Part shown: one piece after another, positions 21,371 through 57,966 of the stretch | Numbering within the stretch: the first letter of the stretch is position 1 | Layout of the letters: each line of letters begins with the position of its first letter | NCBI GenBank assembly: GCA_032718475.1 | Contig: JAUCBJ010000641.1 | Location: 57,723 to 121,722, forward strand | Direction: 5' to 3' | DNA: 64,000 nt | DNA from: Nemertoderma westbladi | Taxonomy: Eukaryota > Animalia > Xenacoelomorpha | Notes under the pieces: model-generated | What the model saw: the letters and a program-made list of their open reading frames with translations, nothing else | What the model was told of the DNA's origin: nothing | Database searches by the model: none | Position numbers and translations under genes: made by a program

Positions 21371-21399
21371 CCGCTCCCAGAAAATGGGATTTTCAGTCT

Positions 21400-25222: not shown

Positions 25223-25235
25223 CCAACCTACTCTA

Positions 25236-25858
25236 CTACTACTACTACTAGGATCGGCATGCTGCATTGCAGCTGCATTTTTAAGAATGCTGTGCCGGCT
25301 TGTCAACAAAATTGCACCGCCACAACTCCCTATCACCCATGACATTTGCTAGATCATCCGCATCTTTAAGGCCAGTGTCCTTTAAGATGCGTCTCAAGAA
25401 AGTCATGGGCTGTCCACCATGCTTATTCGCTCCATGAGGCTGCCAAAGTACAAGATTATGCACTGGCTGGTCCTCACGGCGAAAGCAATGTCCTGCAAAG
25501 CGGAGGCGATTTTGTTCTAGTGTCAAGCTTGGGGGAACCAATGAGACACCTCCAATGTTATATAGTGTCTGGTTGGAGATGTGTGCATTGTACTTGACAC
25601 AATGTACCCGGCGTAGCATTCTTGTGAATGTGCCATCCAGAGATTTGGTGTCCTCAGCAGTTAGAGCCCAGCATGGACTCCCGTAGAGGAGTACTGGAAC
25701 TACTGCTGCTCTAAATAATCGGACCTTAAGTTTCCGATTAATTCTAGGTGACTTCCAAATCCTGGAAAGCCTATTCAAGGCTGCCCATGCCTTTCCCTTA
25801 CGTATTCGAAGGTCCTCACCTGACTTCCGGATCCATGATCCCAGGTAACAGAAGTCGT
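25236..25858 (-). mobile_element. 5'-truncated RTE-like LINE inserted in element A
   Basis: DFCYLGSWI...RIWKS...LLYGSPCW...LRFAGHCFR; (TAG)n tail; 13-bp TSD CCAACCTACTCTA at 25223-25235 and 25859-25871; empty site present in B near 50465. Confidence 0.92.
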
Positions 25859-28800: not shown

Positions 28801-29929
28801 TAGCAATGCGGAGTTGTTCATCGAATTTAGCTTGGTTCGCCGCTAACCTATCCACATCAATCGCATCTAACACGAGTTTGGCTCCTTCGCTATTAGGGCT
28901 AAGTCCCTCTAGCCTTCTCCTCAACTCTTCATCTCCCAAAAAACGCTGATAGTCTGACAGATAGATATCAATGGCATCCTTCTTATGCGGTTTCTCTGCC
29001 GTCGCTTCACTTTCCACTTGGGAAAAAGTAGCGTCCGTCGATTCTCCATGGGTTGAGCGCTCCTCCAACTGAGCTTTCCACTGAGCTGCTCCTTGAACCT
29101 GGCGACTCACCCGTTGAAACCAAGTTTTTACGGCAACTTGCAACGACGTGTCTTGTTTTCTTTTAGAAGCCTCCTCAAAGGCGGATAAGATTAGCCTAAT
29201 CCGCAAAACTCTTTCTCTAACTTGATAAAGCAGCGATCCCTGCTCTTGAGGTCCTTGAGGTTGTTGAAAAAGTTGCTTTTCTACTCGCTCCACAGAGCTG
29301 AAGAATCCCTGTGCGTATCCGGCTGCGGACCTCTTCCACACAGCTGGATCGATGGTTTCCTTGGCTACTCCCATCCGGTGTATGTCTTCCCAGGCAGCTT
29401 CTGATAAATCAAACGGGAGTCCGGGTCCGGGGAAGTTCCATTGCAACTCGACAATAGACTTCAGTTCTTCACTCGTGTATCCCGCGTAACTATCTCTAGT
29501 TGACCGTTGACTTCTCGCCCAATCGATCTGGTGTTCTTCCACCGCGATCAATAACCCAGCGAGCACGGCTGCAGGAAGGATGAGAAGGGGATCCGTATAA
29601 ACCGCATCCGTCATCTCTGCTCCGCGCTCGGGTGTCAGCTCTACAGTATCCTCACTACTGGAGCTGCTGGGCCGCTGAGGAATAAGTTCTTGACTAGCGG
29701 GTTGTTGCTGTTCCGCTGCTTGTTGGTCCCGCTTGACCTGAGCTCGGGTGCCTATGATAGACCTACGATGTTGGACTAGCCTAGGTTCTGTTATTACTAC
29801 TGGAGGGATGACCTTCCTCACAGTGGGAGGTGAACTGAACTTACGACCAGACGGTTGTACGTCTCGATCTGAGTTGCAGATAGTTACATCTAATAAACTG
29901 TCTGACAGGTTCTGCTTAGTATCAGACAT
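25859..29929 (-). CDS. BEL/Pao Gag-protease of element A (frame runs into the RTE insert to 25775)
   Basis: KFNGDEMKWLPF capsid-like region, three Cys/His knuckles, ALLDSGS protease. Confidence 0.9.
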
Positions 29930-32139
29930 GACTAGGTATGTACAGTTGAATGCCTACTGCTATATTACAGTCTAAGCAAGTCTAGTAACTCAGTATTAAC
30001 TGCTAGCCTAGTAATTAATTACCGTTACTGCTACTCAGTGTAGCGTGATATATAATATATTATAATACCGGTATGCTTATAGTATAGATAACTATTATTA
30101 CAGACTAGTTTTATCACCGAATACCGGTATAATTTAGCACAAATATATATAAATATATAATAGGTCTATCTGGAATACCGGTATACAGCTTACAGTTTGT
30201 AGGATATATAATTCTGAAATAGAATTAATTACACGTACCGGTATAATTTCAGCCTAGATTTATAGAAATAAAGATAATAGGCCTATCGTAAATACCGGTA
30301 TATCAATTATTTTAAAAATAACTGAATTTCTGAATTTCAAGGGTTACTTGGTTACTTTACTTACTTTATTACCGTTATTTGAGCAGTAATCCAACTGATA
30401 TTGAGACCTAATGGTTGTATGGTAGGCCTACTATTTATAAATCGTTAGATTTGATTTATAATATATATATACCCGTTTTAATGGGTTTTGTCTATGTTTG
30501 AAATAAATGTTATTATTTCTGGGGTAATCACTACACAAAGCGGTGCGCTTTCAGTGAAGTGTTACGTATAGGACACTAAAACAAATGATTCTAATTTACC
30601 TAAGTTACTTAATACTACAAATTACGTACAATTCGGGTTGAGATTACAATCTCTAAATAAACACAAAAATTTACAAAAACACAAATACGAATTTTTTAGG
30701 GTAATTTTACAAGAAGTCTACAAACCAGTCTAACAAAGGGTTAGAAATCTGGTTATTACAGCGGACAGGGTACTGCGGTATTTGAAAATAATACGTAGTA
30801 GTAAATACACTGCGTTGTCTAGATAGGAAAATACCACCGCCTGACGACCTATAGCCGTATCGTTATAGGTTCTACGTTATGTATCACGGAGTGTTCCTAT
30901 CTAGAAGTTAATAGAGCTAATCGAATGTGCCTATCAACCACTTTACAACACAAATATAATGCCTACACTAATTACTTCGGAAAGTACTGTACACTAAACC
31001 CTAAATTAGGTACGAGTACTTGTACAACAGATAATCAGTAGTTAAATATACTTGAACAGCTAAAAGAACCACGGCATCTGCTGGAGTGACCGATGCACAA
31101 AATCACCAGTCTTTACCTACGCCGAGCAGCCCGTGTAGTACCGGGGTTAATTTAACTATAGCGGTATGTATAACAAACACAATTACTGTAGGAACAAACT
31201 TGGGGAATGAATGTTGCGGATAATCGCATAAACTCTGAATAATAAATATTACGCTACGCGTACAAACTACTCAAACAAAATACAGACCGAACACTGACAG
31301 ACTACTATCAAGCCTAAACAAACTACGGTATATGCAGACTCCGAAATGATTAGGGAGTATGCGCTCTAACCCAGTAGTGCGACTTATTCTTTAGTTGGGG
31401 GTTTACCTTACAGCGTTCGCTGCCCCTACTTCCTAACCGTACTTAATCAGACAAATGATCTACACACACTGCAATCCGTTCAGACCTAATAACAGCCAGA
31501 CAACTATCCAGCCTACAAATTATCTAAATAAAATTATACGCTACCCGTACAGACTTACACAAACAAAGTACAGACTAAACGATGGCAGACTACTCTCAAG
31601 CCTAAATAAACCGCAGGACATGCAGACTCCGAAATGATTAGGGAGTATGCGCTCTAACCCAGTAGTGCGACTTATTCTTTAGTTGGGGGTTTACCTTACA
31701 GCGTTCGCTGCCCCTACTTCCTAACGGTACTTAATCGGACAGGTGATCTACACACACTGCAATTCGTTCGGACTTAACAGCAATCAGACAACAGCTCAGC
31801 CTACAAATCGTCTGTACAATCTGATCAGGCTTACACGCCTTCTGTTCAATACTGGCCTACAAATAAATAAAACTTGACAGAAATAAGTAAACCATATAAA
31901 GGAATAAGGGGTGATCAATCCCTAATCCCTCAAACAGCCTACCGGTATGCAACAATCAAATCGAATAATACTAGTGTACTTATACGGAAGTACCGGTTAG
32001 GACAGCTAGGCCCTACTGACCTACGGCAGTACCGGTTCTAGCGGTTGGGCCTACTGACCTACAGATGTACCGGTCTGCCGGTTCAGGTTTACCGGTTGAC
32101 CAGTACTTTCAACTTTATTGCTTACTGCAACAAAGAAGC

Positions 32140-32151
32140 TATATCCTTTAA
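32140..32151 (-). promoter_or_regulatory. Primer-binding position of A, complementary to its own LTR (32905-32916)
   Basis: Minus strand reads TTAAAGGATATA directly after the LTR, no TGG; LTR minus strand contains TATATCCTTTAA. Confidence 0.7.
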
Positions 32152-33358
32152 TGTTCGCGCTTTCAGACCTTTGGCAGTTTAACCCGCCAAATTAAGATGT
32201 CTTCTAGATATTAAATCGTTTTTAGTCTATGACAAGTATTTGATTCACTACACTAGTCGAAACCAATCTGTGCGCGACCATTCACCCGCTGGATATTCCC
32301 GGGAGATTGGGTTTGACGGTTTAATTTTATTGCTATGTAAGCCTAATGTATTATTCGACTGACAGTATTATATAATCTCTGACAATATTATTCACCTTCG
32401 GGAATATTAACAGTTCCTTTAGGACGTGGCGCTTTATCTATATAAACAGAGTTATGACTTAAACTACTCACAACGATATGGCTTAATTATAATTCACATA
32501 TATGGCGCATTCTTTAGGAATTGCTTCTTTAACAAACTCACTCATACGCAATGCTGCACAATACTGCACACTAATCTGCCAATCTTCACTGCTTTTAGTC
32601 ACATATAAAAGGAACACAGACTGACTCATGTAGGGTCTATCAAATAACATTAGATTCACTTCAAACCACTTTAACATAAGTCACAATCGTTATTGGTAAC
32701 CTTTCTCTCTTACCTTCGGTATATCAAGAATATTGGGTTTCGGGGTTATTTCTCGTTATTCCAAATATAATAATTCATCAACCATATTATGAAGAACTGA
32801 CAGTAAATAGCAGTATAAAACAACAACTGAACACTGATTGTTATGAGTTTGCAATGTTTCAGCAGTCAGGATGTATGATCAGTTAGCAGTGAGATATTTA
32901 CAGGTTAAAGGATATATGTCCTTATAATTAAACCTACTAGTGTAAGACTAAAAACTGAAAACACGGAGGTGCCAAAAGCCGGTTCTTAGGCTCTGGGCAA
33001 AAACATAACACTGAACTACTGAGTTTCTGTATATACCTCCAACACAGAGACAACAAACGCTCTGATTGGTCAACCTGAACAACGAGAGAACAAAGAAACA
33101 AAGAAACGTCGACGTGGCAATATCAGCTGCTAGCCGTCGTCATGGTAGCGACACTGTTTTCAAGAGTATCGAGCTTTTACGTCACGGAATTACGGATTAT
33201 GTCCTCTAAAGTACAAATACAGAAGAAATAGCTTTTATGTCCGCTAAAACACCAGTACAGCAAGGACACGGCCTTTTTATGCCTGGTAAACCAACTACAG
33301 AGTATTTTACGGGAAAAATAAGGAAAAATAACCGGGCAATTCAGCAAAAGCTTTTACA
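32152..33358 (-). repeat. 5' LTR of element A
   Basis: Direct repeat of 20164-21370. Confidence 0.97.
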
Positions 33359-39375: not shown

Positions 39376-40531
39376 TGTTTGCGCTTTTAAGACCTTTGAC
39401 AGTTTAACCTGCCAAATTAGGATGTCTTTTAGATGATATATAGTCTTTAGCCTATGACGAGTATTTGATACACTACATTAGCCGAAGCCAGTCTATGCGC
39501 AATCATTCACCCGCTGGATATACCCGGGAGACTGAATTCGGAAGCTTAATGATTGATGGTGTAAGCCTACTGTATTATTCGACTGATCGTAATATATAAT
39601 CTCTGACAAATATTATTCACTTTCGGGAAATATTAACAGTTCCTTTAGGACGTGGCGCTCTAATTATGTAAACAGAGTTATGACTTAAACTAGACACAAC
39701 GAAAAGGCTATAGATTCACGTATATGGCGCATTCTTTAGGAGATGCTTTGTTATCAGTTACAATCATACACAATGCTGCACAATACTGCACACCAATCTG
39801 CCGACCTTCACTAATTTTAGTCACATACAAAGAGAATAACAGACAATACATGTAGGGCCTATAAAATAGCATTAGATTCACTTCAAACCACTTAACATAG
39901 GTCGCAATCGTTTATCTGTAACCTGTCTCTCTAACCTTTAGTATATCAAGAAGGTTGGGTGTCTGACTATTGATCAGTATTCCAAATATAATCTTCCATC
40001 AACAAATATAATGAATAACCGACAGCAAAAGCAGTAATGTTAAGTAAGATATGCATGATATGTTTAGTAAGCATTGATAAGGTAACTCGATAACAGATAT
40101 ACGTTCTATAATTAAGCCTACTAATGTAAGACTAAAGACTGAAACACGGAGGTGCCAAAAGCCGGTGTTCTTAGGCTCTGGGCAAAAACATAACACTGAA
40201 TTCCTGAGTTTCTGTATCCACCTCCAACACAGAGACAAAAACGCTCTGATTGGTCAACCGAACAACGAGAGAACAAAGAAACAAAGAAATGTCGACGTGG
40301 CAATATCAGCTGTTAACCGTCGTCATGGTAGCGACACTGTTTTCAAGAGTATCTAGCTTATCGCGTCACGAGATTGCGGATTATGTCCTCTAAAGTACAA
40401 ATACAGAGGAAATGACTTTTATGTCCTCTAAAACACCAGTACAGCAAGGACACGGCCTTTTTATGCCTGGCAAACCAACTACAGAGTACTTTAAGGGAAA
40501 ATAACCGGTTAATTACGCAAAAGCTTTTACA
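39376..40531 (-). repeat. 3' LTR of element B
   Basis: TGTTTGCGC...CTTTTACA; homologous to the other three BEL LTRs. Confidence 0.95.
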
Positions 40532-40609
40532 CCGCTCCCAGAAAATGGGATTTAAGTCTATAAAATATAACAAATCACAGTTTCTAAAATATAAAAATAC
40601 TCTAAACAG

Positions 40610-42049
40610 TTAGTCTTTCTTACGCGGACGGCGTTTACGCAGTTTTTTGAGGCTAGTAAGAGTCCTTTTCTCTTTGGGGCGAGCCACTTTACTAGGAGGG
40701 CTGTAACTCCTGGGTGAAGGGTGCAATACAATTGCATCAGAAGGTTTCGGATTGCGATCGGTGTATCCGCCGGTCGAGGTACCTGGTTGATTGATATCAA
40801 CTTCCGTGGAGCGCGGTCTAACAGCCTTTAGGGCGCGCCTCAGGACAGCAGCTCCTACGGGTCCTTGACGGGTTGTCTGGGCAATGGCGGTAGGCGGACC
40901 GTGAGTGGTGAGAAACTTCCTTGGTTTAATAGTTCTTTCCAGCTCGCGTTCTCGGGCTCGATATTCGTAGGGCCGTCGAGATACTTCCTGTAACTCAGGG
41001 TGCGAGTTGATAAATAAATCGCCATACTCAGGGTCTTGACGGATATAATTGATCAAATGGTATGAAGTAATATCGTTAGGATTGACATTCCTAAGGTATC
41101 TTCTAACAAATTTAGTGGAAATACACTCACCAACACGCTTCATTAGCTCGTAACTCGGTATGCGTGTTTTTTGTTCCACAGACGCTAATAAATAAGGATG
41201 GAACGCGTAAACTCCCTCGTAAGAGCGTCCAGGGTAGTATCGATGACGGGACTCACAGTGTAAATCCGCGTTAGCTTCCCAAGCTCGGATGTAGCGCAGG
41301 GTAATCATTTCATCTACGCTCTCTAAATCGTGATTAAAGGGGCAATTATAACTGGCATGTCCTTTAAGTTGACAGTGGTGGCATTGAGTCATAAATTGGG
41401 GGCAGACTGCAAAAATATGAGAGTTATTAAGTCTGCAATACGCACAATATATCTCCATCATTGGTTGTTTGTGGAAATAGGAGCAGGGTACGTCTGAGTC
41501 CATAGGGGTGAAATGGTCTCTCGATGCGCATAATCGACAACGTTTTCGAGAAACATAGTTAGCGTGTCGATAATCGTATGCGGTGAGACATTGTGGACCT
41601 TGATACCACTCTAAGACGTAGTCGTTATCGCTGCTCCGGGGCGCTGTAGGCTGAATCGCTTCAGCTTCTAAGCATATTGGTTCGTCTTCCAATTGCATAG
41701 CTGAGGTAGGTGCGGCTGTCTCCGCAAGCTGACCCACTGTCTGAACTTCGACGACAGAATAACCCGTGGGTATTCGGGGTCTTTGTATAACAGATGAATG
41801 CAAGTTCTGTATACAAACGTCCTGAAAAAGGGCAAATCCCGCGCTGTTTAGTTTCTCCGCCGCTGAGTCTCTCAGGCTGAGTTTGGTCAGAGCGCGGTCC
41901 TTGAACTGACTATCAACGTTACGGAACGGAGTCAGAAAGCGCCTGAAACATTCGAAACGGATGAATTTATTGTGTTCATCTAACTTGGCGAGTTTGGTTC
42001 CAAGTATTAAGGGATGGGTGCGGGGTGCGTATGGTACGACTGCACACAT
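40610..42049 (-). CDS. Extra ORF, distal part: Cys/His zinc knuckles and basic tail
   Basis: CRLCASRDH..C, CAYCRLNNSHIFAVC, CHHCQLKGHASYNC; C-terminal KKLRKRRPRKKD; overlaps the upstream ORF in another frame. Confidence 0.75.
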   Translation of the reverse strand: MCAVVPYAPRTHPLILGTKLAKLDEHNKFIRFECFRRFLTPFRNVDSQFKDRALTKLSLRDSAAEKLNSAGFALFQDVCIQNLHSSVIQRPRIPTGYSVVEVQTVGQLAETAAPTSAMQLEDEPICLEAEAIQPTAPRSSDNDYVLEWYQGPQCLTAYDYRHANYVSRKRCRLCASRDHFTPMDSDVPCSYFHKQPMMEIYCAYCRLNNSHIFAVCPQFMTQCHHCQLKGHASYNCPFNHDLESVDEMITLRYIRAWEANADLHCESRHRYYPGRSYEGVYAFHPYLLASVEQKTRIPSYELMKRVGECISTKFVRRYLRNVNPNDITSYHLINYIRQDPEYGDLFINSHPELQEVSRRPYEYRARERELERTIKPRKFLTTHGPPTAIAQTTRQGPVGAAVLRRALKAVRPRSTEVDINQPGTSTGGYTDRNPKPSDAIVLHPSPRSYSPPSKVARPKEKRTLTSLKKLRKRRPRKKD

Positions 42050-44870
42050 CGGCTAGCCAACCGGCAAGTGCTGCGTTTTCAAAGATCGTGTATATAGCTA
42101 AGGAGGGACGAAGTGGAACACTCATAAAGCTATACACGGCGCCAGGTGCGGTCAATGGTCCATCAAAGTATAAACGAGAATAGTGATCTCCGTATACTTG
42201 TTGGTAATTTATAGGATTTCCAACCTTGAAATTCCATCCGTATTCTTGAAAGGCAAGATGTCCGATGGAGGTTCGTTGTACTTTGGTAATTCCGCTGGGT
42301 GTATTGGCATACATAGTGCGGAAGAAACCTCGGCCTTCTGCCCAAGGAGCAATCAGCTGAGTATCAACGAAGGGGTATGGAATGTTCTCCATATTCCGAA
42401 AGTCGTTCTGTAGGTCTCCATAAACAGCTGAGCCGATTTTAAGGATTCCTTCGTTAAACAGCATCTCGAGCACGGGTTGGGGTAACATCGATCCATCGAT
42501 ACCCATGGCCGGCTTGCACTCGGTGTCGGTGACGTAACGCTGCGCGAGTTCAAATTGTCCATGTCGGAGTTTCTTTTGTGTCTCAGTAAGAGTTTCAAAA
42601 GAATAATCAATAACGTCGGAACACGCTCGAGTAAATACGTGGGTAGAACCAGCGAGTCCTCGTATATGTATCATCTGCGTAGTTCCAAGTTCTCCAACCG
42701 GAACGCTACCTTCGTTATCGTAAGTGACAACTCCATACATCTCGATAACGTTAAGAGTTTCGTTCCACTCTTTAGTGGCGTTTTCGAGTGTCATTCCCAC
42801 AGGATGCCACAAGGTAGCACATTCGCTAGCATTAGGCAGGTCTTTATACTTTAAATATTGTGTGGTATATGTTTCCACATCTCCATATCGTTGTATTCTT
42901 TCCTCCTCGAATAACACATCAAGATTCCAGTGCACTAAACGAGTTTTGATGAATCCATCAAGATTATACGGAGGTATTGTTTCTTTCTCTATTCTGGAAA
43001 CATTATATGGTTTTCGAAACGAGTTTACTTTAACTAACTGATCCAGATGTTTCTGCAGTTGTTCGAGTTCGACAAGATCGAGAGGATTTATTAACGGTAG
43101 AAACTTCAGACTATGTGTAGGATCTTCCGGTTTTACCATGTAATATTGTTTTAGATTGACGTAATAAGGGTGATCTTTGATCCCATAAAACGAGTCCGGT
43201 AAAGGTCTAGCGCGTATGTTTACATCGTGTACCATGCGACGGACAAGATCTGCTCTATTGTCCAGAGGTTCAACGAGTATACCATCGACACGAGCGGGTT
43301 CGATGGGCGGACGCTGCAACAGAGGAGCGTCGGCGATAAGATCGCGAGATCTTAGGTTGATATCAATCGGTTGGGGTTGTGCCGTCGCAAAAAGTTTGTC
43401 TCCGAAATGGGGAACCATCGAGGGATGAAGAATGGTTTTAGAGTAGAGATCCGTCATAAGGATTTCCGCTTCGGGTTGAGCTAAAGCCGCTTCTTCTCTC
43501 TCATCCAGTTCTATATGTCTCTCCTCGAGCTGATTCTCCTCCGCTTGTTGTTGTAGACGCTCATCTAGAAACTCTTGTAAAGAGTAGGTTCGTCCACGTT
43601 CGATGTCCTCCTCGAGATTTTGTATTTCTCTATCGAACTGGGGTAAAGCTAATTCCTTCACCGCTTGGACTTGTTGCTGCAATTTACGCTTCTCCAAACA
43701 ATCGTACGTTCCCTTTCCGATTTTCTGCCGAATAGCGTCTAATGCGTTTCGTACGACGCTCTCTTCGACTTCCGTAACGGGTTGGATAGAGGTGAAGCCG
43801 GGACGGTTGTATGGGTTAAACGGCGATATTAGTTGACCACGTCCCAATCCAGCTAGGTAGGGTTGGCGAATGTCTCGTGAGCCTACTACCAGAGTGCCAC
43901 CGATCAACTGTTCGGGTAACACTAGATCTTTGAACAGTGAGTACAGTTCGGGAGGATCCGTGATACTATTAGGGTCAAGAGTTTGAGGTCTAACTGAGGA
44001 ATGCGGAGGTCTGACCGAGTATTCCGGAACTCTGATCATCGGTTTGTTCAAGGATCGCTTGAGTCGAGCGACCGCAGGGGACACGTCGAACAGGTTTCGC
44101 TCGAAACTCCCGTAAGTATATCGTGTAAAACTGTGTTTAGCGCAACGTCTCCGCGGATGTTTATGTCTTTCCATTTGCTGATTGGGTCTAGGGCATTCGT
44201 CACAGTAATACCAAAGACGCATGTCCTGCAGAGGAAACGCGGGTGATCGTTCTCCAGTTTTACAATATTCCTCCATCTGTTCGAAGCTATCTGGGACAAC
44301 AGGTAGCGGTCGATCGGCGGTAAGATACATCATAGTGAAATAGAGTCGTTTGAGTTCTATCATAGGATCATGATGTATACCTTGAGGATATCGAGTTTCG
44401 AGATTTTGTTGACTGGCAATATTGAGGTATGTTTCTCTCAAGAATTCCAGATAATCGTTGAAGTCGTTGCGTTTATCCGGTTCTTCAACGTCTTCTCTTT
44501 CGAGTCGGTTTCGAATAGAGTTCTCGTGTTCTATTCTTGGCTTATCGTTCCGATTCCGTTGGGTATGATATTTAAATAAAACCATTTCCCTTTCGGTATC
44601 CACATCGTCCGTATTGTGTAAATCGATAGGGTGGCCGGTAGTTAAGAAGTCCATATACGTACCATTACGATGCGTATAGCGAGCTGTGAACTTTCTATAG
44701 TCCAATTCACGCGTAAGTTGCTCCAGGGACATTGGCGGTTCGATATAACGACCATCATCCTCCGTAGTAGTTGGACCAGCGTCGCCGTGTATCAAGCTAT
44801 CGACAAACGCTTGTAAAGGTAGAGTATATCGCTCCCTGATACCAAGATCATCTTCTATCAACTCAGTCAT
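41976..44870 (-). CDS. Extra ORF, 964 aa, with putative DEDD/DnaQ 3'-5' exonuclease domain (WRN/EXD/RNase D-like)
   Basis: VVTYDNEG (ExoI), LPQPVLEMLFNEGILKIGSAVYGD (ExoII), FVDTQ, SIGHLA, PLTAPGAVYS (ExoIII-like), about 42110-42760. Confidence 0.72.
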   Translation of the reverse strand: MTELIEDDLGIRERYTLPLQAFVDSLIHGDAGPTTTEDDGRYIEPPMSLEQLTRELDYRKFTARYTHRNGTYMDFLTTGHPIDLHNTDDVDTEREMVLFKYHTQRNRNDKPRIEHENSIRNRLEREDVEEPDKRNDFNDYLEFLRETYLNIASQQNLETRYPQGIHHDPMIELKRLYFTMMYLTADRPLPVVPDSFEQMEEYCKTGERSPAFPLQDMRLWYYCDECPRPNQQMERHKHPRRRCAKHSFTRYTYGSFERNLFDVSPAVARLKRSLNKPMIRVPEYSVRPPHSSVRPQTLDPNSITDPPELYSLFKDLVLPEQLIGGTLVVGSRDIRQPYLAGLGRGQLISPFNPYNRPGFTSIQPVTEVEESVVRNALDAIRQKIGKGTYDCLEKRKLQQQVQAVKELALPQFDREIQNLEEDIERGRTYSLQEFLDERLQQQAEENQLEERHIELDEREEAALAQPEAEILMTDLYSKTILHPSMVPHFGDKLFATAQPQPIDINLRSRDLIADAPLLQRPPIEPARVDGILVEPLDNRADLVRRMVHDVNIRARPLPDSFYGIKDHPYYVNLKQYYMVKPEDPTHSLKFLPLINPLDLVELEQLQKHLDQLVKVNSFRKPYNVSRIEKETIPPYNLDGFIKTRLVHWNLDVLFEEERIQRYGDVETYTTQYLKYKDLPNASECATLWHPVGMTLENATKEWNETLNVIEMYGVVTYDNEGSVPVGELGTTQMIHIRGLAGSTHVFTRACSDVIDYSFETLTETQKKLRHGQFELAQRYVTDTECKPAMGIDGSMLPQPVLEMLFNEGILKIGSAVYGDLQNDFRNMENIPYPFVDTQLIAPWAEGRGFFRTMYANTPSGITKVQRTSIGHLAFQEYGWNFKVGNPINYQQVYGDHYSRLYFDGPLTAPGAVYSFMSVPLRPSLAIYTIFENAALAGWLADVCSRTIRTPHPSLNTWNQTRQVR

Positions 44871-46513
44871 ATCTGCTATGAGTTTATCAATATTATAATG
44901 AGTCTATATATATTAGGCTAGCGGGCGTCGCTGCCTACCCCTCTTTTGCCCCCGGACAGTGTAAGATCCTCAGCGCCGATGTACCGTCGTCGCCGTGCTT
45001 TCGCCAACGATGTAGCTACACAACGACAACGATAACCGGCACAAGTCACTTCACTGTCCGTCCCAAAGGCTTAGATGTACTGCAGGTTCTTCTTGGAGAG
45101 TTAGGGTTACTTTCACAATTGCGACTCGCTACTGTAAACACACCTTAGTAGTAACATTCACCTACAAACACACAAATTCAACACAACTGCAACAAACTGC
45201 ACACATTCGGGCCATTTGTCCGTTAGTCAGTACCTTCCAGAATGTCACTGTATTTATTATGTATCCTTGGATACTAGCAGTGCGCTATTTATTCCCTATG
45301 CTATTCAATGGGGCATGCTTTCTATTGTTCTTTTAACTCACTTCTAATTCTAGCGTGGTTGTTGCCATGGTGACATTATGGAAAGCTAGCGGTAGAATTA
45401 GGGTAATTCTCATGCATACAGATTTGGGATGCTATTTAATAGTAATTCTTTAATGGTCAATATCCCCTTTATACATGATTCTATGAATTTTATCGGCTAT
45501 TGACTATGCATTGGAGACCCTCGCACACAAATACACTTAATAGAGTGAATCTCCGCTCCCATGATCCATTAATTAATGGAACTTTGGGAATGTTATAAAT
45601 TGCACAAAATGACAATTTATTAAATTCATTGAAATATATGAATTTAAATCTATTCCCGTAAATTTTATTATTTAATATTAAAATGGACACAATTTTATTC
45701 CAGAACGTGTCTGGGGACTGGGATCCTTGATTCTAGGAATTTTGTCCTTTTAAGAGTATCGGTAAGTGCTACGATATCTTAATCGACTAGAATTTTAAAG
45801 GATCTGATATTTGACAGATTTTTGTAAATATTAATAATTAATATTTAGGATGGGCACCAGTTTATTCCAGAACTTGTCTGGGGACGTTAACCATTGATTC
45901 TAGAAATTTGTCTTTCAAGTATATCGGTGGGTGCTGCGATATCTTAATCGACTAGAATTACATATGGTCAAAGGGTTTAACAGATTTATTTTGCGTTATA
46001 CGCTACTGTTAAAGGGACATCACGCTACTATATGTATTATTTAATATACGGTATGAGAGCAATATCGCACGAAGCAATGTCAGTGTGAAGAGGCAAGTCG
46101 TTTCCAAGGTCTACCCAGAGCTTGGTTTAGCCGAGACACGAGGATCTGAACTTTGCATTCCTAATACTCTGCCTACCAATAATACTTGAATATAGTAGTG
46201 GCTTTATTGTACTTTAATAAGTACGGATATTTCATCTTACTGTAGTCACGTATTGATAATGTAATACGGGCAGTAAGGAAAGAGAAAAAGAATTATTTCT
46301 CGCCGTCGCACTAAATATATAATATACGTAATTAAATAATAAATGCGAATATATATTGCACTAATCTACTAAATAATCTCTAAAATACTATACTACTAAA
46401 TAAAATTAAATAAAACGATTAAAATAAAATTACATAATAATACATACATAAATATAAAAATAAAACAAATACAAATATAAAGTAATATGGTCACACACCC
46501 ACTCCAGCCATTG

Positions 46514-49500
46514 TTAAGTTGGGGAGTCCCTAGATGTTTGTTGGATTAGGGAGGTGGTCGTGGGAAGAGTATCTTGTCTCCCATAGTTTCCGGAGAGTTC
46601 TCTGTCTCTTTCCAGTAAACATAAACGTCCCACCGGGCGATTGAGCTGCTGCGTCTCGAAGAAAATTCCCGGTTTCTTGAAGTTACGTCGCATGACGACG
46701 AGTTCTACCGATCGCACCAAACCGTCATCCGAGATGTGGGTCTCGATGATACGACCTGTCTGCCACCTCTTACGTGGAAGATCTACATCCACAATAAGAA
46801 CCATGTCTCCAGCGCTAACGTTTTCTTGCTGCGCAAACCACTTAGTTCGAAGTTGTAGCGTGGGCAGATAATGTTTTTCGAAATGGTCAGCGAAACGACG
46901 GGATAACAACTGCATGAGTTGCCAAGTTTGTCGGCAGTATTCGTCTCCGTCTGTGATTTCCGATTGTGGGAGCATGGCTACAGGTTTCTTCAGTAGGAAG
47001 TGCGCGGGTGTTAGCGCTTCCAGGGAATCGGGACTCGATGAGACTGGCATAAGCGGTCTCTCGTTGAGATAGGCGGCGATTTCTTCCATTAACGTCCGCA
47101 AAAGTTCGTCGGTGAGATAAGCGCGGCAAGGCACTATAAAATGAAATGCTGTCTTCACGCTTCTTATTAATCTCTCCCAACTTCCTCCCCACCAAGGGGC
47201 GTCGGCGGCGTTGAAGGTCCAACTAGACGCTGTTACTCGTAGTTGGTCGTCCACCTGTCTTTGGTTCCAATCTTTGGCGTAAGCTTTGATTTCATTGTTG
47301 GCACCAATGAAGTTTGTTCCCTTATCAGATCTCATCGTGTTACTAGTGCCAAAGCGAGCGATCTGTCGTCGTAAGCTTAATAGAAAGCTGTTGGTAGATA
47401 AATCGTTCACCATATCGAGATGGATGGCTCTACAAGTCATACAAACAAAGATTACACACCATCTCTTGACTATAGTCCTAGCACGATATACTTCAATAGG
47501 GCCAAATAAATCCACACCGGTATTAGTAAAGGGTGGTTCATAAAAGCTTACTCGTTCCCTAGGTAATTCTGCCTCTCTCTGTGTTAAAGGCCTACTGAAT
47601 GCTTTCCTACAGGGTATACAGTTCCTAAGAACTTGGTTCAGAGCTCTACGGGGTTTATAAAAATAATAGCGAGTTCGAATTTCGCTAAGAACTCATTCTC
47701 TACCAGCATGATAAAGTTTGCTGTGAACATCTACAATCATCTTGACTTGTATTTCAAGATTTCTAATGAGTATGGGGAACTTAGTATCAAAGGATAATGG
47801 GGCATTCGTTAACCTTCCTCCAACACGTATCAACCCATCTATCATTGTGCTAGAGAAACGATCCCTTAAGCGCATCTGTGGATTTCTCAACAACAGGAAA
47901 TACTTATCGGAATCTTCATAGCATTGTAAGAGTCTCAGCATCTGTTTGTTGGTTTCTTCATGCTCCTGATAACTGATCTTCTCCTTCAGAAACTTGTCGG
48001 GTACCTTATATTTGGGAATGTCTTTAATAACATGGACCTGCACTGATGTGATTGGAGCGGTATCACCCTTTGTTTTCATCCCAGAGTAGTGATGGTGAAA
48101 ACATCTCTTTAAATATGTAACGGCCTTACAAAGCCGATTCCAAGAACTGTAGTGATGCATCGCTCTCTGCAGAAGAGGTGAGAGTCCTTGCGAGACGTCT
48201 GGTATACCAGATTTCCAATCCTTATCATGGATTTCCACAATGGGTTTATTTGTGGCTGTGGGTTTCTGATCCAAAGCGTCGTCTCCGGAAGTATGTAGTA
48301 CAGACAGATCTACTGTGGGTTTGAATAACTTCGATTTACTCGCCTGAGTTTTAGGTTTGACTTTCTCCGCTCCCTTGGCCTGTCTAATTTCTGCTGTAGT
48401 AAGATGAGGAGGCCATTCTTCTTCTTCTTGGTAGAGGAAGTTGGGTCCACCTAACCAGTCTGGAGTATCTACCAGTTCTTGTGGAGTTGCTCCCCTGGAA
48501 GCGATGTCTGCTGGATTAATCGTTCCGGGGCAATGTCTCCATTGATCCATCGTCGTGCGACTGAGTATAATAGCTACTCTGTTGGTAATAAAGACGCTGA
48601 ACTGACAGACTTCATTGGTTATATACTCCAACACGAGTAAAGCGTCGGTCCAATAGACAGTTTTCTCCAGGGGATAGTCGATCTGTTCTGTTACATTCCG
48701 GCCGATGGCTGTAGCGTATAGAGCCACTTTTAACTCCGCTCGAGGAACTTTCAACTTGTTGTTTATTAATGCCTTAGAGGTAACCAAGGCGACTTTAATT
48801 CCGTCCGGAGTTTCCACCCTTAGGTAGGCTACTATACCTATTCCCATATCGCTGGCGTCTCCAAACACATGGAGTTGATATGAATACGTAGGGAGAACAT
48901 GACCAAACTATGAACGGGAAATTATGAAGTTTTCGATGGCTGGTAGAGAATCTTCCCATTTCATCCACTTCTTTAATAATTCTCCCTTAAGTGGATCGTC
49001 CCATGAGTGGTTTTCAAGCCACATTTGTTGTACTAAACTCCGAGCAATCAATATAACTGGGCTAATAAATCCCAATGGATCGAAATAAGTGCTCAGGATA
49101 CTTAAACAAATCCGTTTAGTCCGAACTGGATTATCTCGCTGTTTTAATTGGAAAAACAGGATGTCTCTTTCTGTGTCCCATTTCAAACCAAGGGTCTTAG
49201 TTTCTGGGAGATCATCCTTTATTAGATCTAGGTCTTTTGCTCCTCGATCTTCTACCGGGATCGACTCCAGAAACTCACGGGAGTTGCTGGTGAATTTAGT
49301 TAATCGAAATCCACCTCTTTTTAAGCACTCTACCGTTCCTTTAGCGACGTCAATGGCTTCTTCGACTGATGGAAGGGACTTTAGATTATCGTCCATGTAG
49401 ATGTCTCGTTTGATATTGTCGATCACTTCTTTAGAGAAGGCGTCTCGGTTGTCATCCGCAGTGGTGCGCACCACGGAACAGGCGTTTGAAGGGCTCGAGA

Positions 49501-52500
49501 TTATCCCAAAGGCTTGGATGGTCATCCAGTACTCCACCGGTTTCTTGTTGAGGTCTCCTTCAGGCCACCACAGAAATCGTAGGCTGTCTCGATCCCTATC
49601 CAGCGCTTTGACTTGTAAGAACATGCCTTCTATATCTGAGGCGAAAGCAATTGAATATTGTCTTAATCTTAATAGTATTCCCAACAAGGATTGGAGTAAG
49701 TTGGGTCCGGGTAACAATTCAGAATTAAGAGATTGGCCCATATAAAGGGCGGAACCGTCAAACACCACTCGTACTTCATGGGGTTTACCGGGTTTGGGAA
49801 CGTAATGGTGAGTTAAATAATACGTTCTCTCAGTTATAGGTGTTTCTTCCGGTACTAGCTCCGCATATCCCTTGCTAATAAACTTCTTCAACTGCGTTTG
49901 ATACATTTCTTTAGCTGAAGAATTTGCCGTAAGGCGTCGATGTAGTTGCGCAATTCTTTTCTCCGCCAAAGGTCTGTTGTTAATGAACTTCGGTTCTCGC
50001 TTTCGGAAAGGAAGTCCGATCTCATACCTACCTTGATCTTTAAGAAAACGAGTAGTTGTCGCTTGGATCTGCTTGGCTCTTTCTTCCTCCACCGATAGGG
50101 CCTTATCGTAGGAGTTGGGCTCTACAACCTCTTGAGTAAAGAATCTTACGGCGTGTTCATCCCGAGTCTTGGCATTATAACGTTCAATGACGTCATTAAG
50201 CTCGTCGTTATAGTCGTCTCGCTCGGATGGGAGAAGGAGTTGACATAAGTTCACTTGATTTTGCCAAGTCTCGCTTTCCTTAAGGAGATCGATGGCATTC
50301 TCCTCATCGAAAAGTTGATATATATCGTCGTTGTCTGAGGAGTATGGAGTTCCCTCAGTTGGATCGTCGAACTCACTGTTCTCAACTTCCCATTCTCGCA
50401 CTTGATATACCTGATCTTTCGGTAATCTTTCCATGAGAGTTCTACGGGAAGGGCCAGTAAAGTACCAACCTACTCTAGTTCTTACCGCATAGGTCTGTAG
50501 TGGCTGCGGTTGAGCAGGCCGTTTCTCCAATGTCTCGAGCGCCTCATGCGCGTTTTGGCCGATGAGTATTTGCACTCCAGGATAATCAGTCTGGAATCGA
50601 GGTATCTTAAGATGTTGGATGCTCTCATCCTCGTCCCAATTATAAAGGTCTGCTTGAGTGGTAGCGAAGTTCTTTATAGCCACCATTTTCACTGACCTTA
50701 TGCTACGTTCTCCTAGTTCGTCCTGGGGGGTGGACAACGCACCTACATAATAATCCGCTGTTACTGTGGATTTCCAAACTTGCATAATTCCTGACATGTT
50801 TAGCTTAGTTCGGAACTTGGGTTGTCCATCGAATATGTCTTCGGCTAGCTCTTTGTCGATGAATGTTCCTGTACTACCGGAGTCAAGGAGGGCGTTCACT
50901 ACATAACTCCTTTTTGGTCCGTGGACCCTTACCTGTACCACAGGAAATTCTCTAATCCCTACATTGGAAGTTGGCGCTTTCCAAAATGGTTGTTGATCAG
51001 AAGTAGTTAGGGTAAGGTCGCTGTCCGTATCTCTTTCATACGTGAGTGCTCGATACACTGTGGTATTTATCGTGTAACAGGATTCGTTTTCGTCGGAGAA
51101 CTCGTCCGTATAGAATCCTTCCATCTCAGATTGATCAGTGTCGTTCACATCACTGAATTGGACATGTAGTTCGGAATCACTTACCTGACTCGGACTATTT
51201 CGCTCGAATTCAGTGTGCAACAAGATATGATGTTTCGCACCGCACTTGGCACATCTTGTGTCAGAGTAACAGGTTCGCCGTTGGTGTCCATGTCTGAGGC
51301 AATTATAACACAACCGCTTATCCCACATGACTTCACGTCTCTCAGTTAATGATTTCTTTAGAAATTCATCACACATATTTAAGCGATGGGTCCCATCACA
51401 TAGCGCACATTTCGGTTTGATGTTACTCACCTTACTCTGAGTAACATTGTGTACACTTGTTTTTTCTTCGGGCTTTCTCACCTGAATTCTCTTGGGAGAC
51501 GTAGGAGGAGTTTTTCTTACCTGCTCTCTCCTGTCATTGGTTCGAGACTTGAATTTACTTACCTGATCTTTAGGCATTTTATTTACGTAATAAGATCTGT
51601 CAGTGTCTTTCCCGCCATCTTCTCCTTGAGAAGTCTGGCTTTCGCCGTCATCTGTATAACACACTGGTGTTACCTTTCTCCTAGAGACGGGTTTTTCACT
51701 TACCTTGTTTTCCGGTGTCTTCTCTCTGGACAGTTTCAGGAGCTGTAATTTCACTTCTCCATCTAGGAATGACATGAGATCAGCCATGGTAGGGTCTCGT
51801 CGTTGTTGTTCCATCATATATAACACTTTCTTATCCCAGCGTGTACCTACTCCACCCTTCGGTAAAGTAGAAGCCACTGCTCTAATAACCATAGCACTCT
51901 GATACTCATGAGACTTACCTAGCCAATCTAATTGTCTGCAGATCTCCTGAATCTCATCGGAAAACTCTATAATCCCGCTGCTCATAAACTTTCGGGGCGC
52001 CACTAACTTTGCATACAAATACCCAGCTATGTTATTCCTATTACCATACCTGATGTTTAGTGTATCCCAAACTTGTCTTAATCCGTCTGGATGTCCAATA
52101 AACTTTAACGCCATTAACTTGGGAGATCCTTCCAAGCACTCGATGAGGAACCTAAGTTTCTCTCCATTAGATAGCACAGAGTTCTGTATGTTATCTTTGT
52201 AATATTCATTAAAAGGTAACCATTTCATCTCATCTCCATTGAACTTGACGATCTCTCCCACCTTTACTGCTTGCCGGGCTTCGGTTCTAGCCATTTGACG
52301 CGTAAAACTTTCTTGGGCCATCGTGTTATTTAATATCGAGTTATCGGTATATAAATTTCTCGGATTATGATCCGGTCTATAGGGAATATCATTATCAACA
52401 GGTCTATAATTACTCTTAATAGGGTTCACTATAGGAGTTTCTACTTCGCTAGCAGTATAGATGCGTGTAGGCTCCACACCTTGCGCATGAGATACTTCAG

Positions 52501-54589
52501 ACCTAACAGGTTGACACATTGTTACAGGGGGTGGTGGTATACCCTTTTGTAAATTTACTAATTTATCACATTCTAGCGCGATATTTTGCTGCACTTCTTG
52601 CAACTCTAACCTACTTTCCTTTACGGTTCCCTTTAACTGTTGAACAGTCCCTTCTAACTCTCGGACCTGTTGGGAGGAGCGCACTCGATTCTCCTCCATC
52701 TTTCCGAGGAGAATGTCCATCCCCCGCCGTCTCTCGTCCACCCAATCAACCGCCGAAGCGGGATCCGCCAACGTCGTAGCGGGCAGACGAGGGACTACGG
52801 GCGATATATCCTTTATATTTCGCTCGGAGTCCAGGACCGACACTGTTTCAAGGGCTGTTCCTCTAGGCACAGATAATTTGGTGCTGTGTAAAGGGAATTT
52901 AAAGGTAGGTTCTGGGAGTACAGGTGTCTCTATCACCGAAGGGGTGATTTCAAGAACAGGCCTAATTATTTCAGGCTCATCTACTATAGTAGGGAGTCTT
53001 TCTATTTTAATTATTTGGTCTGTGGGTTCTGTACTACCTAAGTTTGTGTTATTTAGTTGCCTTCTAACAGCTGGGGGCAAATCAGGTAATTTCTGACGGT
53101 GGGACATTCTTTTACGTCTGCTTAGGCGAGATCGATTTCCTCCTCCTTCAGGATCGGTGGTATCGCCTTCCTCAGATGATGTATAACCCTGTCTTTTGGG
53201 AGTAGATCGATTCATCATCTGCATATTACTAGCTGTTAACTGTTTACTGAAGTCGTCTTGCTTCTCTTGAAGATTTTCCAACTCCAGTTGGGCGATCTCT
53301 TCAGCCGCTCTCCGTTCTGCTTCCGCCACCGCCGCCGCTTTTGCCTCTGCCGCTGCTTCTGCCAAGGTCGCTTTTCTTTCTGCCTCTGCCACTGCTGCTA
53401 TCTTTCTGTCTTCTATACGTTTTTTCTTTATTTGTTCTTCTTGAACCTTAGCGATGCGGATACTTTCATTGAATTTAGCTTGGTTCGCAGCTAACCTATC
53501 CACATCGATTGCGTCCAACACACGCTGGGCTCCTTCACTATTAGGGCTAAGTCCCTCTAGCCTTCTCCTCAGCTCTTCATCACCTACAAAACGTTGATAG
53601 TCCGACAGATAGATATCAATAGCATCCCTCTTATGCGGTTTCTCTGCTGTCGCTTCACTCTCCACTTGGGAAAATGTAGCGTCTGTTGATTCTCCATGGG
53701 TTGAGCGCTCATCTAGTTGGGCTTTCCACTGAGCCGTTCCTTGAACCTGGAGACTCACCTTTTGAAACCAAGTCTTTACAGCAACTTGCAACGACGTGTC
53801 TTGTCTTCTTTTAGAAGCCTCCTCAAAGGCTGATAAGATTAGCCTGATTCGTAGAATTCTTTCTCTAACTTGATAAAGCAGTTGTCCCTGCTCTTGAGGT
53901 CCTTGGGGTTGTTGAAACAGTTGTTTTTCTACTTGCTCCATAGAGCTGAAGAATCCCTGTGCGTATCCGGCTGCGGACCTCTTCCACACAGCTGGATCGG
54001 TGGTCTCCTTGGCTACTCCCATCCGGTGTATGTCTTCCCAGGCAGCTTCTGATAAATCAAACGGGAGTCCGGGTCCGGGGAAGTTCCATTGCGACTCGAC
54101 CATAGACTTCAGTTCTTCCCTTGTGTATCCCTCATAACTATCTTTAGTTGATCGCTTACTTCTCGCCCAATCGATCTGGTGTTCTTCCACCGCGATCAAT
54201 ATCCTAGTGAGTACGGCTGCAGGCAGGATGAGAAGGGGATCCGAATAAACCGCATCCGTCATCTTTGCTCCGCGCTCGGGTGTCAGCTCTACAGTATCTT
54301 CACTACTGGAGCTGTTGGGCTGCTGAGAAATAAGTTCTTGGCTCGCGGGTTGTTGCTGTTCCGCTGCTTCTTGGTCCCGCTTGACCTGGGCTCGAGTGCC
54401 TATGATAGACCTATGATGTTGGACCAGCCTCGGTTCTGTTATTACTACTGGAGGGATGACCTTCCTCACAGTGGGAGGTGAACTGAACTTAGGTGTAGAC
54501 GGTTCTACACCCTTATCTGAGTCGCAGATAGTTACATCTAATAAACTGTCTGACATGTTCTGCTTAGTATCAGACATGTTTGTTTGCAC
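46514..54589 (-). pseudogene. BEL/Pao Gag-Pol of element B with two in-frame stops (48908-48910 TAG, 47693-47695 TGA)
   Basis: Three track ORFs share one frame; LLDSGS, DIEGMFLQV, YMDD, FGDASD, NPADIASRG, DLFGP, SDKGTNF, GSWERLI. Confidence 0.93.
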
Positions 54590-56784
54590 AGTTGAATGCC
54601 TACTGCTATATTACAGTCCAAGCAAGTCTAGTAATTCAGTATTAACTGCTAGCCTAGTAGTTAATTACCGATACTGCTACTCAGTGTAGCGTGATATATA
54701 TAATATTAGAATACCGGTATGCTTATGGTATATATAAGTATTATTACAGACTAGATTTTTCACAGAAACCGGTATATAATTTTAGCACAAATATATATAA
54801 ATATATAATAGGCCTATAGTGGATACCGGTATGCAGTTTACACTTATAGTATATATAAGTATAATTATTAACTAGAATTAATTACAGAATACCGGTATGA
54901 TTTCAGCTTATATTTATAAAATAAAAATAATAAGCCTATTGTAAATACCGGTATATCAATTATTTTAGAATAATTGAATTTCTGAATTTTAAGGGTTACT
55001 TGGTTACTTTAACTTACTTTATTACCGTTATTTGAGCAGTAGTCCAACTGATATTGAGACTTAATTGTTATATGGCAGGCCTACTATTTATAAATCGTTT
55101 GAGTTGATTTATAATATATATAGACCCGTTTAATGGGTTTTGTCAATGTTTGAAATAAATGTTATTATTTCTGGGGGAGTCACTACACATAAGCAGTGCG
55201 CTCTCAGTGGAGTGCTACTTGTTAGACACTAAAACAAATAATTCTAATTTATCTAAGTTACTTAATACTACAAATTACGTACAATTCGTTTGAGATTACA
55301 ATATCTAAATAAACACAAAAATTTAATTACAAATACACAAATACGAATTTTTAGGGTAATTTTACAAGAAGTCTACTAACCAGCCTAACAAAGGGTTAGA
55401 ATATCTGGTTATTACAACGGACAGGTTACTACGGTATTTGAAAATAATAAGTAGTAGTAAATATACTGTGTTATCCAGATAGGAAAATACCACCGCCTGA
55501 CGACCTATAACCGTATCGCTATAGGTACTACGTTATGTATCACGGAGTGTCCCTACCTAGAAGTTAATTACCGCGGTCTACCAGAACCAACGTGCCTATT
55601 AACCACTTTACAACACAAATACTGCCTACACACTAATTGCTTTCGGAAAGCACTGTACACTAAACCCTAAATTAGGTACAAGTACTTGTATAACAAATAA
55701 TCAGTAGTTAAAAATACTTGAACAGCCAAAAGAACCACGGTATCTGCCGGAGTGACCAAAGCACAAAATCTCCAGTCTTTACCTACGCCGAGCAGCCCTG
55801 ATGTAGTACCGGGGTTAGTTTAACTATAACGGTATGTATAACAAACACAATTACTGTAGGAATAAACTTGGGGAATGAATGTTGCGAATAATAGCATAAA
55901 CTCTGAATAATAAATATTACGCTACGCGTACAAACTACTCAAACAAAATGCAGACCAAATACTGACAGACTACTATCAAGCCTAAACAAACTACGGTATA
56001 TGCAGACTCCAAAATGATTAGTTAGTATGCGTTCTAACCCAGTAGTACGACTTATTCTTTCACAGGGGGTTTACCTCACAGCACTTGAAGCCCCTACTTT
56101 CCTAACTTAGCACTTTATCGGACAGATGCTCTACACACACCGAAATTTCCTCAAACCCAACAACAGCCAGACAACTATCCAGCCTACAAATTATCTAAAT
56201 AAAATTATACGCTACCCGTACAGACTACACAAACAAAGTACAGACCAAACGATGGCAGACTACTATCAAGCCTAAATAAACCACAGGACATGCAGACTCC
56301 GAAATGGTTAAGTAGTATGCGTTCTAACCCAGTAGTACGACTTATTCTTTAGATGGGGGTTTACCTTACAGCTATGGCTGCCCCTACTTCCTAACCGTTC
56401 TTTATCGGACATACACTCTACATGCACTGCAATCCGTTCAGACCTAATTAACAGTTAGCCAACAGTCAAGCCTACAAATTATCTGTACAATCTGAGCAGG
56501 CTTACACGCCTTCTGCTCAATACTGGCCTACAAATAAATAAAACTGACAGAAATAGGCCTAAGTAAAATCCCAATAAAAACCAGGCGTCCCCGATTAATT
56601 ATTAAGACCTACCGGCATATAATAATCAAATCGAATAATACTGCTGTACTTGTACTGTAAGTAAGTACCGGTCCGGATGATCAGGCAGTCAGGCCTACTG
56701 GTTACCGGTCGACCGGTACTTTCGACTAGATTGCTTACACCGCAATCCAGAAGCAATATCTGTTATTGTTTCTGGATTAGTTCA

Positions 56785-56795
56785 ATATCTGTTAT
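56785..56795 (-). promoter_or_regulatory. Primer-binding position of B, complementary to its own LTR (57519-57529)
   Basis: Minus strand reads ATAACAGATAT directly after the LTR; LTR minus strand contains ATATCTGTTAT. Confidence 0.7.
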
Positions 56796-57966
56796 TGTAT
56801 GCGCTTTTAAGACCTTTGACAGTTTAACCTGCCAAATTAGGATGTCTTTTAGATGATATATATTCTTTAGCTTATGACGAGTATTTGAGACACTACATTA
56901 GCCGAAGCCAGTCTATGCGCAATCATTCACCCGTTGGATATACCCGGGAGACTGAATTCGGAGCTTAATGATTGATGGTGTAAGCCTACTGTATTATTCG
57001 ACTGATCGTAATATATAATCTCTGACAAATATTATTCACTTTCGGGAAATATTAACAGTTCCTTTAGGGCGTGGCGCTCTAAATATGTAAACAGAGTTAT
57101 GACTTAAACTAGACACAACAAAAAGGCTATAGATTCACGTATATGGCGCATTCTTTAGGAGATGCTTTGTTATCAGTTACAATCATACACAATGCTGCAC
57201 AATACTGCACACTAATCTGCCAACCTTCACTAAATTTGGTCACGTATAAAGAGAGCAACATACAATTTATGTCGGGCATATGAAATAGCATTAGATTCAC
57301 TTCAAACCACTTAACATAGGTCGCAATCGTTTATTTGTAACCGGTCTCTCTAACCTTTAGTATATCAAGAAGGTGGGGTGTCTGACTATTGATCAGTATT
57401 CCGATATAATATTTCATCAACCAATATAATGAATAACCGACAGCAAAAGCAGTAATATTAGTAATTTATGGATAGATATGGTATGTTAACTCGAATTGCA
57501 TTGGTATGGTTAGGTTAGATAACAGATATACGTTCTATAATTAAGCCTACTGATGTAAAGCTAAAGAATGCTGATATACGGAGGTGCCAAAAGCCAATGT
57601 TCTTAGGCTCTGGGCAAAAAACATAACACACTGAACTACTGAGTTCTGTATACACCTCCAACACAGAGACAAAAAACGCTCTGATTGGTCAACCGAACAA
57701 CGAGAGAACAAAGAAACAAAGAAATGTCGACGTGGCAATATCAGCTGTTAGCCGTCGTCATGGTAGCGACACTGTTTTCAAGAGCACCCAGCCCACCGCG
57801 TCACGAGACCGCGGATTATGTCCTCTAAAGTACAAACACAGAAGAAACGACCCCCACGCCCTCCAAAACACCAGCACAGCAAGGACACGGCCCTTTTATG
57901 CCTGGCAAACCAACTACAGAGTACTTTAAGGGAAAATAACCGGTTAATTACGCAAAAGCTTTTACA
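56796..57966 (-). repeat. 5' LTR of element B
   Basis: TGTATGCGC...CTTTTACA; clearly diverged from 39376-40531. Confidence 0.95.

Follow-up and report, generated by a model that had tools for sequence, protein, structure and literature searches.

A putative DEDDy-derived exonuclease with zinc knuckles encoded downstream of pol in a BEL/Pao retrotransposon of Nemertoderma westbladi

A stretch of 64,000 nucleotides of contig JAUCBJ010000641.1 from Nemertoderma westbladi (the window, to which all positions refer) carries on its minus strand two related BEL/Pao long terminal repeat (LTR) retrotransposons, named A and B. In element B the interval from the pol stop (46514) to the 3' LTR (40531), the env position, contains some 1,420 additional codons. 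This third open reading frame (ORF3) appears to be a real accessory gene that a large BEL/Pao family retains under selection, as judged from sequence comparisons. Its product very probably contains a domain with a DEDDy-derived 3'-5' exonuclease fold, a view to which individually weak signals of the window protein and those of a homologue, P0001, contribute jointly. In intact copies ORF3 may code for a large RNA-binding protein, composed of an RNase D/WRN-type (DEDDy-derived) exonuclease followed by zinc knuckles, that shortens the element's own RNAs from their 3' ends; the chance that this function is correct is put at slightly under even. The proposal builds on the position of ORF3, its motifs and knuckles, its coding constraint and a single homologue whose parts are arranged alike. 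From these we infer the fold, a D-E-D-E active site, the feeding of substrate by the knuckles, separate expression and action in trans.

The search of 1.84 billion representative proteins returned a sole match to ORF3, P0001 (648 aa, E 4e-5), a singleton on a 9.4-kb contig. The two proteins share 30% identity over 150 aa in the nuclease region and their knuckles match independently (31.6 bits). In P0001 a single ORF contains exonuclease, linker, three knuckles and basic tail, and the order nuclease-linker-three knuckles-tail therefore exists elsewhere. Both were aligned to a reference profile of 13 bacterial RNase D/Pol I-type exonucleases (2 from Escherichia coli and 11 picked for spread among 40 listed of 71 plasmid records). 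P0001 scored 19.5 bits (0 of 2,000 shuffles as high) and the window ORF a weak 4.7 bits (1 of 2,000), with no score for the gag-pol and reversed controls. The hhalign values against these references were 93% for P0001, 93% for P0001 combined with the window sequence (the pair over 51 columns) and 14% for the window domain alone, with 5% or less in 100 shuffles. The window domain has only two NCBIfam matches, both to RNase D models (E 0.021 and 0.049), and a PHROG exonuclease (E 0.26) is one of its four weak matches. In the Atlas feature comparison it scored 0.91 against a cluster of which 50% of the members carry PF01612, and 24 of 30 matches belong to that set. The first Atlas match of P0001 (0.86, 163 shared features) is an exonuclease-CCHC cluster from Euglenozoa and serves as a lead only. 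The first-pass annotation of this DNA had read ORF3 as an exonuclease with zinc knuckles; the profile, NCBIfam, Atlas and P0001 comparisons support that reading, while the fold is assigned on sequence evidence and has no Pfam match.

No further relatives were found in word-index searches (530-1687, 356-1134 and 116-441 aa), in locus scans across contigs of viral, metagenomic and genomic origin, or in phages or plasmids. Sequence searches of the PDB gave none either, RNase D ranking second in one of them (E 0.79), and E. coli RNase D used as query retrieved nothing from viral contigs. One contig scan yielded a locus (L001) whose similarity, a single 8-mer, was attributed to chance. Note that a motif-chain shuffle test (0 of 5,000) is not counted, its pattern having been derived from these very sequences and having missed RNase D.

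The DEDD-like motifs reported at first pass are present: YDNE, LKIGSAVYGD and PL-x6-Y. D718 and E720 align with the D-T-E of the 13 references and the D-V-E of P0001, and D819 aligns with ExoII of RNase D in several comparisons. ORF3 has two copies of PL-x6-Y, which leaves ExoIII ambiguous between Ser917 and Glu931. The ExoIII of P0001 is clearly Y-x3-E, and the second register scores highest among all 24-mers of the ORF against P0001 (score 26 and 8 identities, against 1 and 4). Since P0001 favours this register, a D-E-D-E site with Tyr927 is the favoured assignment and would be characteristic of the family, not a lesion. The earlier observation that the ExoIII Asp reads Ser, taken as a sign of altered catalysis, is probably a misregister, the better one giving Glu as in P0001. 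Neither register has the Asp of a canonical ExoIII Y-x3-D, and the domain is thus named DEDDy-derived and not a canonical member.

These residues also bear on whether ORF3 is a non-catalytic RNA adaptor, whose nuclease fold and knuckles would bind the genomic RNA and whose coiled coil and basic tail would route its export, transport or packaging as in Egalitarian. The Glu or Ser in place of Asp at ExoIII, the 30-aa insertion in the domain and the basic tail found in both the window protein and P0001 are compatible with such a role, and Egl, Exu and Exd1 are described as employing this fold for binding. It is nevertheless unlikely: the two proteins, 30% identical, both retain the Tyr along with three of the acidic residues, and in the favoured register the fourth position is acidic as well.

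In copy B ORF3 is split into two frames. The amount of about 1400 codons given earlier for the region between integrase and 3' LTR is real, but they form two overlapping frames rather than one ORF and a spacer precedes them. The N-terminal 690 aa have no assigned domain, with a probable coiled coil at residues 400-460, and the exonuclease-like domain follows. The second part ends 78 nt short of the 3' LTR. Its three Cys/His knuckles, one canonical CCHC and two with longer spacers, give a weak Pfam match (zf-CCHC_3, E 0.03). They had been recognized at first pass together with the basic tail resembling a nuclear localization signal (NLS), which is common to element A. A CxxC...H...C..H cluster at ORF3 residues 223-246 (44204-44133), legible also in the A remnant, is a possible fourth zinc site. 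The statement that the protein is not Env holds: a hydropathy scan detected no hydrophobic, membrane-like segment in either part (best 19-residue Kyte-Doolittle means of 1.19 and 0.92). The frame break is absent among the 12 indels listed in the comparison with sequencing contigs, beyond which lie 317 further indels.

Element A lacks the reverse transcriptase (RT), most of the integrase, the exonuclease and the knuckles. It is a very young non-autonomous copy whose gag-protease frame is still open (1,392 aa). Its ORF3 remnant, cited earlier as proof that the gene belongs to the family, is restricted to the N-terminal half plus the tail and therefore cannot vouch for the nuclease; that the gene is a family feature is supported by read contigs. 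Contigs from four sequencing runs cover 30 of 30 bins of B, with 144,620 diverged contigs on the element in run X1, and related contigs span exonuclease and knuckles nearly gap-free at 83% identity. The 14 contig pieces listed in ORF3, a selected sample being the longest among more than 100,000, total 5,788 nt with 962 differences and 4 gap letters; 12 are gap-free and some cross ExoI and the knuckles. By comparison, two non-coding alignments of A and B (87-88% identity) contain 17 gap openings in 1,652 nt and 31 in 1,989 nt, and the 12 indels listed in the contig comparison all lie outside coding regions. Among 40 listed of 4,425 differences, 7 of 13 in ORF3 and 12 of 16 in pol are synonymous. 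The ratio of nonsynonymous to synonymous rates (dN/dS) between A and B is 0.27 (bootstrap 0.19-0.38) over 378 N-terminal ORF3 codons, near the value of gag-protease (0.20). Contig joints show several deleted forms, one of which matches the deletion of A.

These results make it highly improbable that ORF3 codes for something other than an exonuclease or is a passenger sequence useless to the element. The lack of a confident fold, the lack of a Pfam match and the frame break in copy B would agree with that explanation, but independent weak signals point to one and the same family, and frame conservation and the dN/dS value speak for a coding function.

The carrier B is a BEL/Pao LTR retrotransposon by both its domain order and its paired TG...CA LTRs. 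The DSG, YMDD and integrase motifs follow the BEL/Pao order (protease-RT-RNase H-integrase) and gag-pol matches DUF1759 (E 8.5e-11), Peptidase_A17 (E 7e-15) and DUF5641 (E 2.6e-20) of Pfam. The roughly 790 gag residues upstream of DUF1759 have no Pfam match, and the 2.2-kb leader includes a 288-bp tandem duplication. At 18.6 kb the element is well over the 4.2-10 kb quoted for BEL/Pao in PMC3118150. Copy B is defective, with two in-frame stops in pol and one frame break in ORF3. The outer edge of its 5' LTR adjoins the 30-bp satellite, and no target-site duplication was found at its ends. According to a simulation from LTR divergence, ORF3 should have gained about 5 stops and gag-pol about 10, where 0 and 2 are seen; it is not relied on because B has no target duplication and may be recombinant.

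For the exonuclease proposed here, the protein would be expressed from the spacer, apart from pol. The spacer is presumed to house a promoter or splice acceptor for ORF3; a pattern search found no pyrimidine-tract splice acceptor in it. The knuckles might hold single-stranded RNA and pass its 3' end to the nuclease, by analogy with trypanosome RNase D. The protein would work in trans, given the recent movement of A and similar deleted copies that lack the nuclease. Its most specific candidate substrate is a self-primer, the LTR transcript pairing with the primer site over 11-12 nt. In B the primer position pairs over 11 nt with a segment of the 5' LTR and with its copy in the 3' LTR at 40090-40100 (as long a match in 6 of 5,000 shuffles). 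In A the pairing is of 12 nt (32140-32151 with 32905-32916 and 20917-20928; 0 of 5,000 shuffles). It lies at the same LTR position in both elements with different, compensating letters and no cross-pairing, and neither has a tRNA-type primer site. The pairing ends exactly at the LTR edge, and a longer RNA fragment would therefore need 3'-5' trimming to prime; RNA cut farther downstream could be trimmed back to the duplex by the ORF3 nuclease. Of the three roles suggested at first pass (anti-piRNA factor, RT proofreader, primer-trimming enzyme), it is primer trimming that gains a hint from the self-priming signature, and it is put forward as a hypothesis only. It is quite unlikely that the full scenario applies, namely that giant self-primed BEL/Pao elements form a clade encoding a D-E-D-E exoribonuclease whose knuckles grip the LTR transcript for trimming to the 11-12-nt primer duplex, the gene being an old accessory one common to distant elements (P0001).

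Another use of such an enzyme would be anti-silencing: ORF3 might degrade or sequester small RNAs or their precursors, or act as a decoy of EXD1/Mut-7-type host factors, so that the family evades piRNA control. EXD1 and Mut-7, described as having the same fold, are active in silencing (PMC5408684), and the arenavirus ExoN is reported to repress host defence (PMC7968707). The great number of diverged contigs fits this idea, and mobility of deleted copies without the nuclease is what a trans factor predicts. If true, ORF3 would be a rare case of an animal transposon-encoded silencing suppressor. We hold it to be rather unlikely: no link to EXD1 or Mut-7 emerged, an EXD1-like cluster reaching only 0.77 in the Atlas comparison of P0001, and mature piRNAs have methylated 3' ends resistant to such enzymes. 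Rotifer DEDDy ORF3s, as far as they are described, also have no clear link to copy number (PMC5408684).

A role as proofreader or editor of cDNA ends for the reverse transcriptase, which would permit the oversized genome, is very unlikely. The size of the element relative to other BEL/Pao (PMC3118150) invites it, as do accounts linking nidovirus ExoN to genome growth (PMC7968707) and proposing DNA-end processing for the DEDDy domain of Dada transposases (PMC3706591). Yet RNase D models are the top matches, the knuckles are laid out as in an RNA enzyme, ORF3 is separate from pol and the copies are highly diverged.

Several observations weigh against an RNA-trimming exonuclease. ORF3 part 1, exonuclease-like domain included, has no Pfam match, and P0001 reaches PF01612 at E 0.2 at best. 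AlphaFold models had a mean predicted local distance difference test score (pLDDT) of 31 for the single domain and 33 for a two-sequence alignment whose N-terminal part was misaligned; since both predictions failed, the fold is deduced and not demonstrated. Foldseek (nothing at E <= 0.001) and VIA (best Z 2.9) searches with these low-pLDDT models were uninformative. P0001 is the only homologue; its similarity to the post-knuckle block is not significant (858 of 1,000 shuffles), nor is that of ExoI by itself (319 of 1,000), which the MAFFT pairwise alignment of the two proteins misplaces. The bacterial references cannot separate the two ExoIII registers (Ser 5.5 versus Glu 4.1), the MAFFT joint alignment picked that of Ser917, and Glu in place of Asp may reduce activity. 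The dN/dS values come solely from outside the nuclease, that of the 53-codon tail (0.81; 0.24-3.3) being uninformative. Tf1 reportedly produces its self-primer using RNase H alone. Egalitarian reportedly retains all five catalytic residues and does not need them (bioRxiv 2025.08.03.668247).

Table 1. Coordinates of elements A and B and of ORF3 features in the window.
Feature	Position	Strand	Remarks
Element B	39376..57966	-	BEL/Pao LTR retrotransposon, 18.6 kb
5' LTR of B	56796..57966	-	1,171 bp, TG...CA, 91.8% identity to 3' LTR
Candidate self-primer, LTR segment of B complementary to bases just past 5' LTR	57519..57529	-	11 nt
Primer-binding position of B	56785..56795	-	Not TGG tRNA type
gag-pol of B	46514..54577	-	Single frame: long gag, CCHC, protease DSG, RT YMDD, RNase H, integrase
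Spacer between pol and ORF3	44871..46513	-	Non-coding, 1.64 kb; internal duplication of ~140 bp; 88% identity to A
ORF3 part 1	41976..44870	-	964 aa counted from first ATG (44870), stop 41976
Putative DEDDy-like 3'-5' exonuclease domain	42030..42785	-	Fold inferred; ~30-aa insertion after third strand
ExoI D718-x-E720 (putative)	42711..42719	-	Joint alignment
ExoII D819 (putative)	42414..42416	-	17 residues ahead of DTQ, like P0001 and E. coli RNase D
ExoIII favoured register Y927-x3-E931	42078..42092	-	P0001 comparison
ExoIII alternative register Y913-x3-S917	42120..42134	-	Register of the first-pass annotation
Frame break	41976..42052	-	77-nt overlap of the two ORF3 frames
ORF3 part 2	40610..42052	-	480 aa stop to stop: acidic linker, three knuckles, block without assignment, low-complexity basic tail
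Three Cys/His knuckles	41342..41539	-	41539-41483, 41446-41402, 41383-41342
Basic C-terminal tail, NLS-like (predicted)	40613..40648	-	KKLRKRRPRKKD, found in element A too
3' LTR of B	39376..40531	-	1,156 bp
Element A	20164..33358	-	Related element, young and with internal deletions; 99.75% LTR identity; target duplication of 5 bp (GATAC)
ORF3 remnant in A	21371..22781	-	Decayed; N-terminal half fused to tail

Other repeats share the window. A small separate LTR element (33488-36212) with 486-bp repeats of 99.6% identity lies between A and B and contains a Retrotrans_gag fragment on the plus strand (34119-34811). Satellite arrays occupy 1-10650 (42-bp unit x 253) and 57967-62487 (30-bp unit x 151), and the long ORFs within them are by-products of the repeats. 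An endonuclease-RT ORF of long interspersed nuclear element type (1,065 aa) is found at 13273-16470 and an RT fragment adjoins the 3' end of A (19048-20226). An inverted repeat pair within 36766-37365 (67 nt, 466 nt between, 94% complementary) is possibly a miniature inverted-repeat transposable element.

The literature search, whose reach was mostly open texts with Repbase and GyDB outside its scope, found no BEL/Pao element with an exonuclease. An exonuclease is reportedly present in the gypsy-class nematode element Cer3. The main texts of PMC3118150, PMC2774666 and PMC13524379 do not use the word "exonuclease". In env-carrying BEL/Pao such as roo the third gene after pol is described as coding for a fusion glycoprotein (PMC3118150, PMC13524379); ORF3 of B takes the same place but has no hydrophobic segment. 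The novelty expected at first pass was overrated, DEDDy ORF3s in LTR retrotransposons having already been published for rotifers (PMC5408684). The rotifer LTR retrotransposons Juno and Vesta and the Terminons carry RNase D-like DEDDy ORF3s whose function is not shown in the sources consulted (PMC5408684, PMC5718144, PMC6431247). The ORF3s of Juno and Vesta, by these accounts, and of B are alike in placing an RNase D-like nuclease in the env slot, in having no transmembrane segment and in their altered acidic tetrad. What is new relative to the rotifer kind is carrier group, size, architecture and tetrad: B is a BEL/Pao with about 1,420 codons, three knuckles and D-E-D-E, whereas the rotifer tetrad is DEED by published description. 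The capture of a nuclease in the env slot would thus extend from rotifer elements to BEL/Pao. Dada DNA transposons also carry a DEDDy domain; unlike in B, it is described as lying within the DDE transposase and as having a complete DEDD tetrad (PMC3706591).

Egalitarian, EXD1, Mut-7 and WRN have the same inferred fold, a similar LKIG-x5-D motif style and RNA-binding or silencing roles; unlike ORF3 of B they are host genes. No significant match to any of them was found in the sequence searches, PDB included. These four proteins are not known to have knuckles of the ORF3 kind.

The closest resemblance in layout is to trypanosome RNase D (TbRND), whose DEDDy domain precedes a C-terminal array of several CCHC knuckles, an arrangement present in P0001 within one ORF and in B across the frame break. 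It was indicated by the Atlas lead of P0001 and by a weak match of the knuckles to PDB 7c42 (E 2.9). The TbRND knuckles are described as binding single-stranded RNA and strongly boosting binding and cleavage or trimming (PMC7797062). TbRND is a cellular, mitochondrial enzyme with 351 aa in the solved chain and four knuckles near the nuclease, according to the same source (PMC7797062). ORF3 of B differs by a linker of about 200 aa to the knuckles, a long N-terminal region and the Glu at ExoIII, and the likeness is one of layout. The exonuclease-plus-knuckle design of this characterised enzyme would here be carried by a mobile element. With a domain unbroken in one frame, many copies with and without it and a candidate self-primer substrate, the role of retrotransposon DEDDy ORF3s, still a question in 2017, becomes testable.

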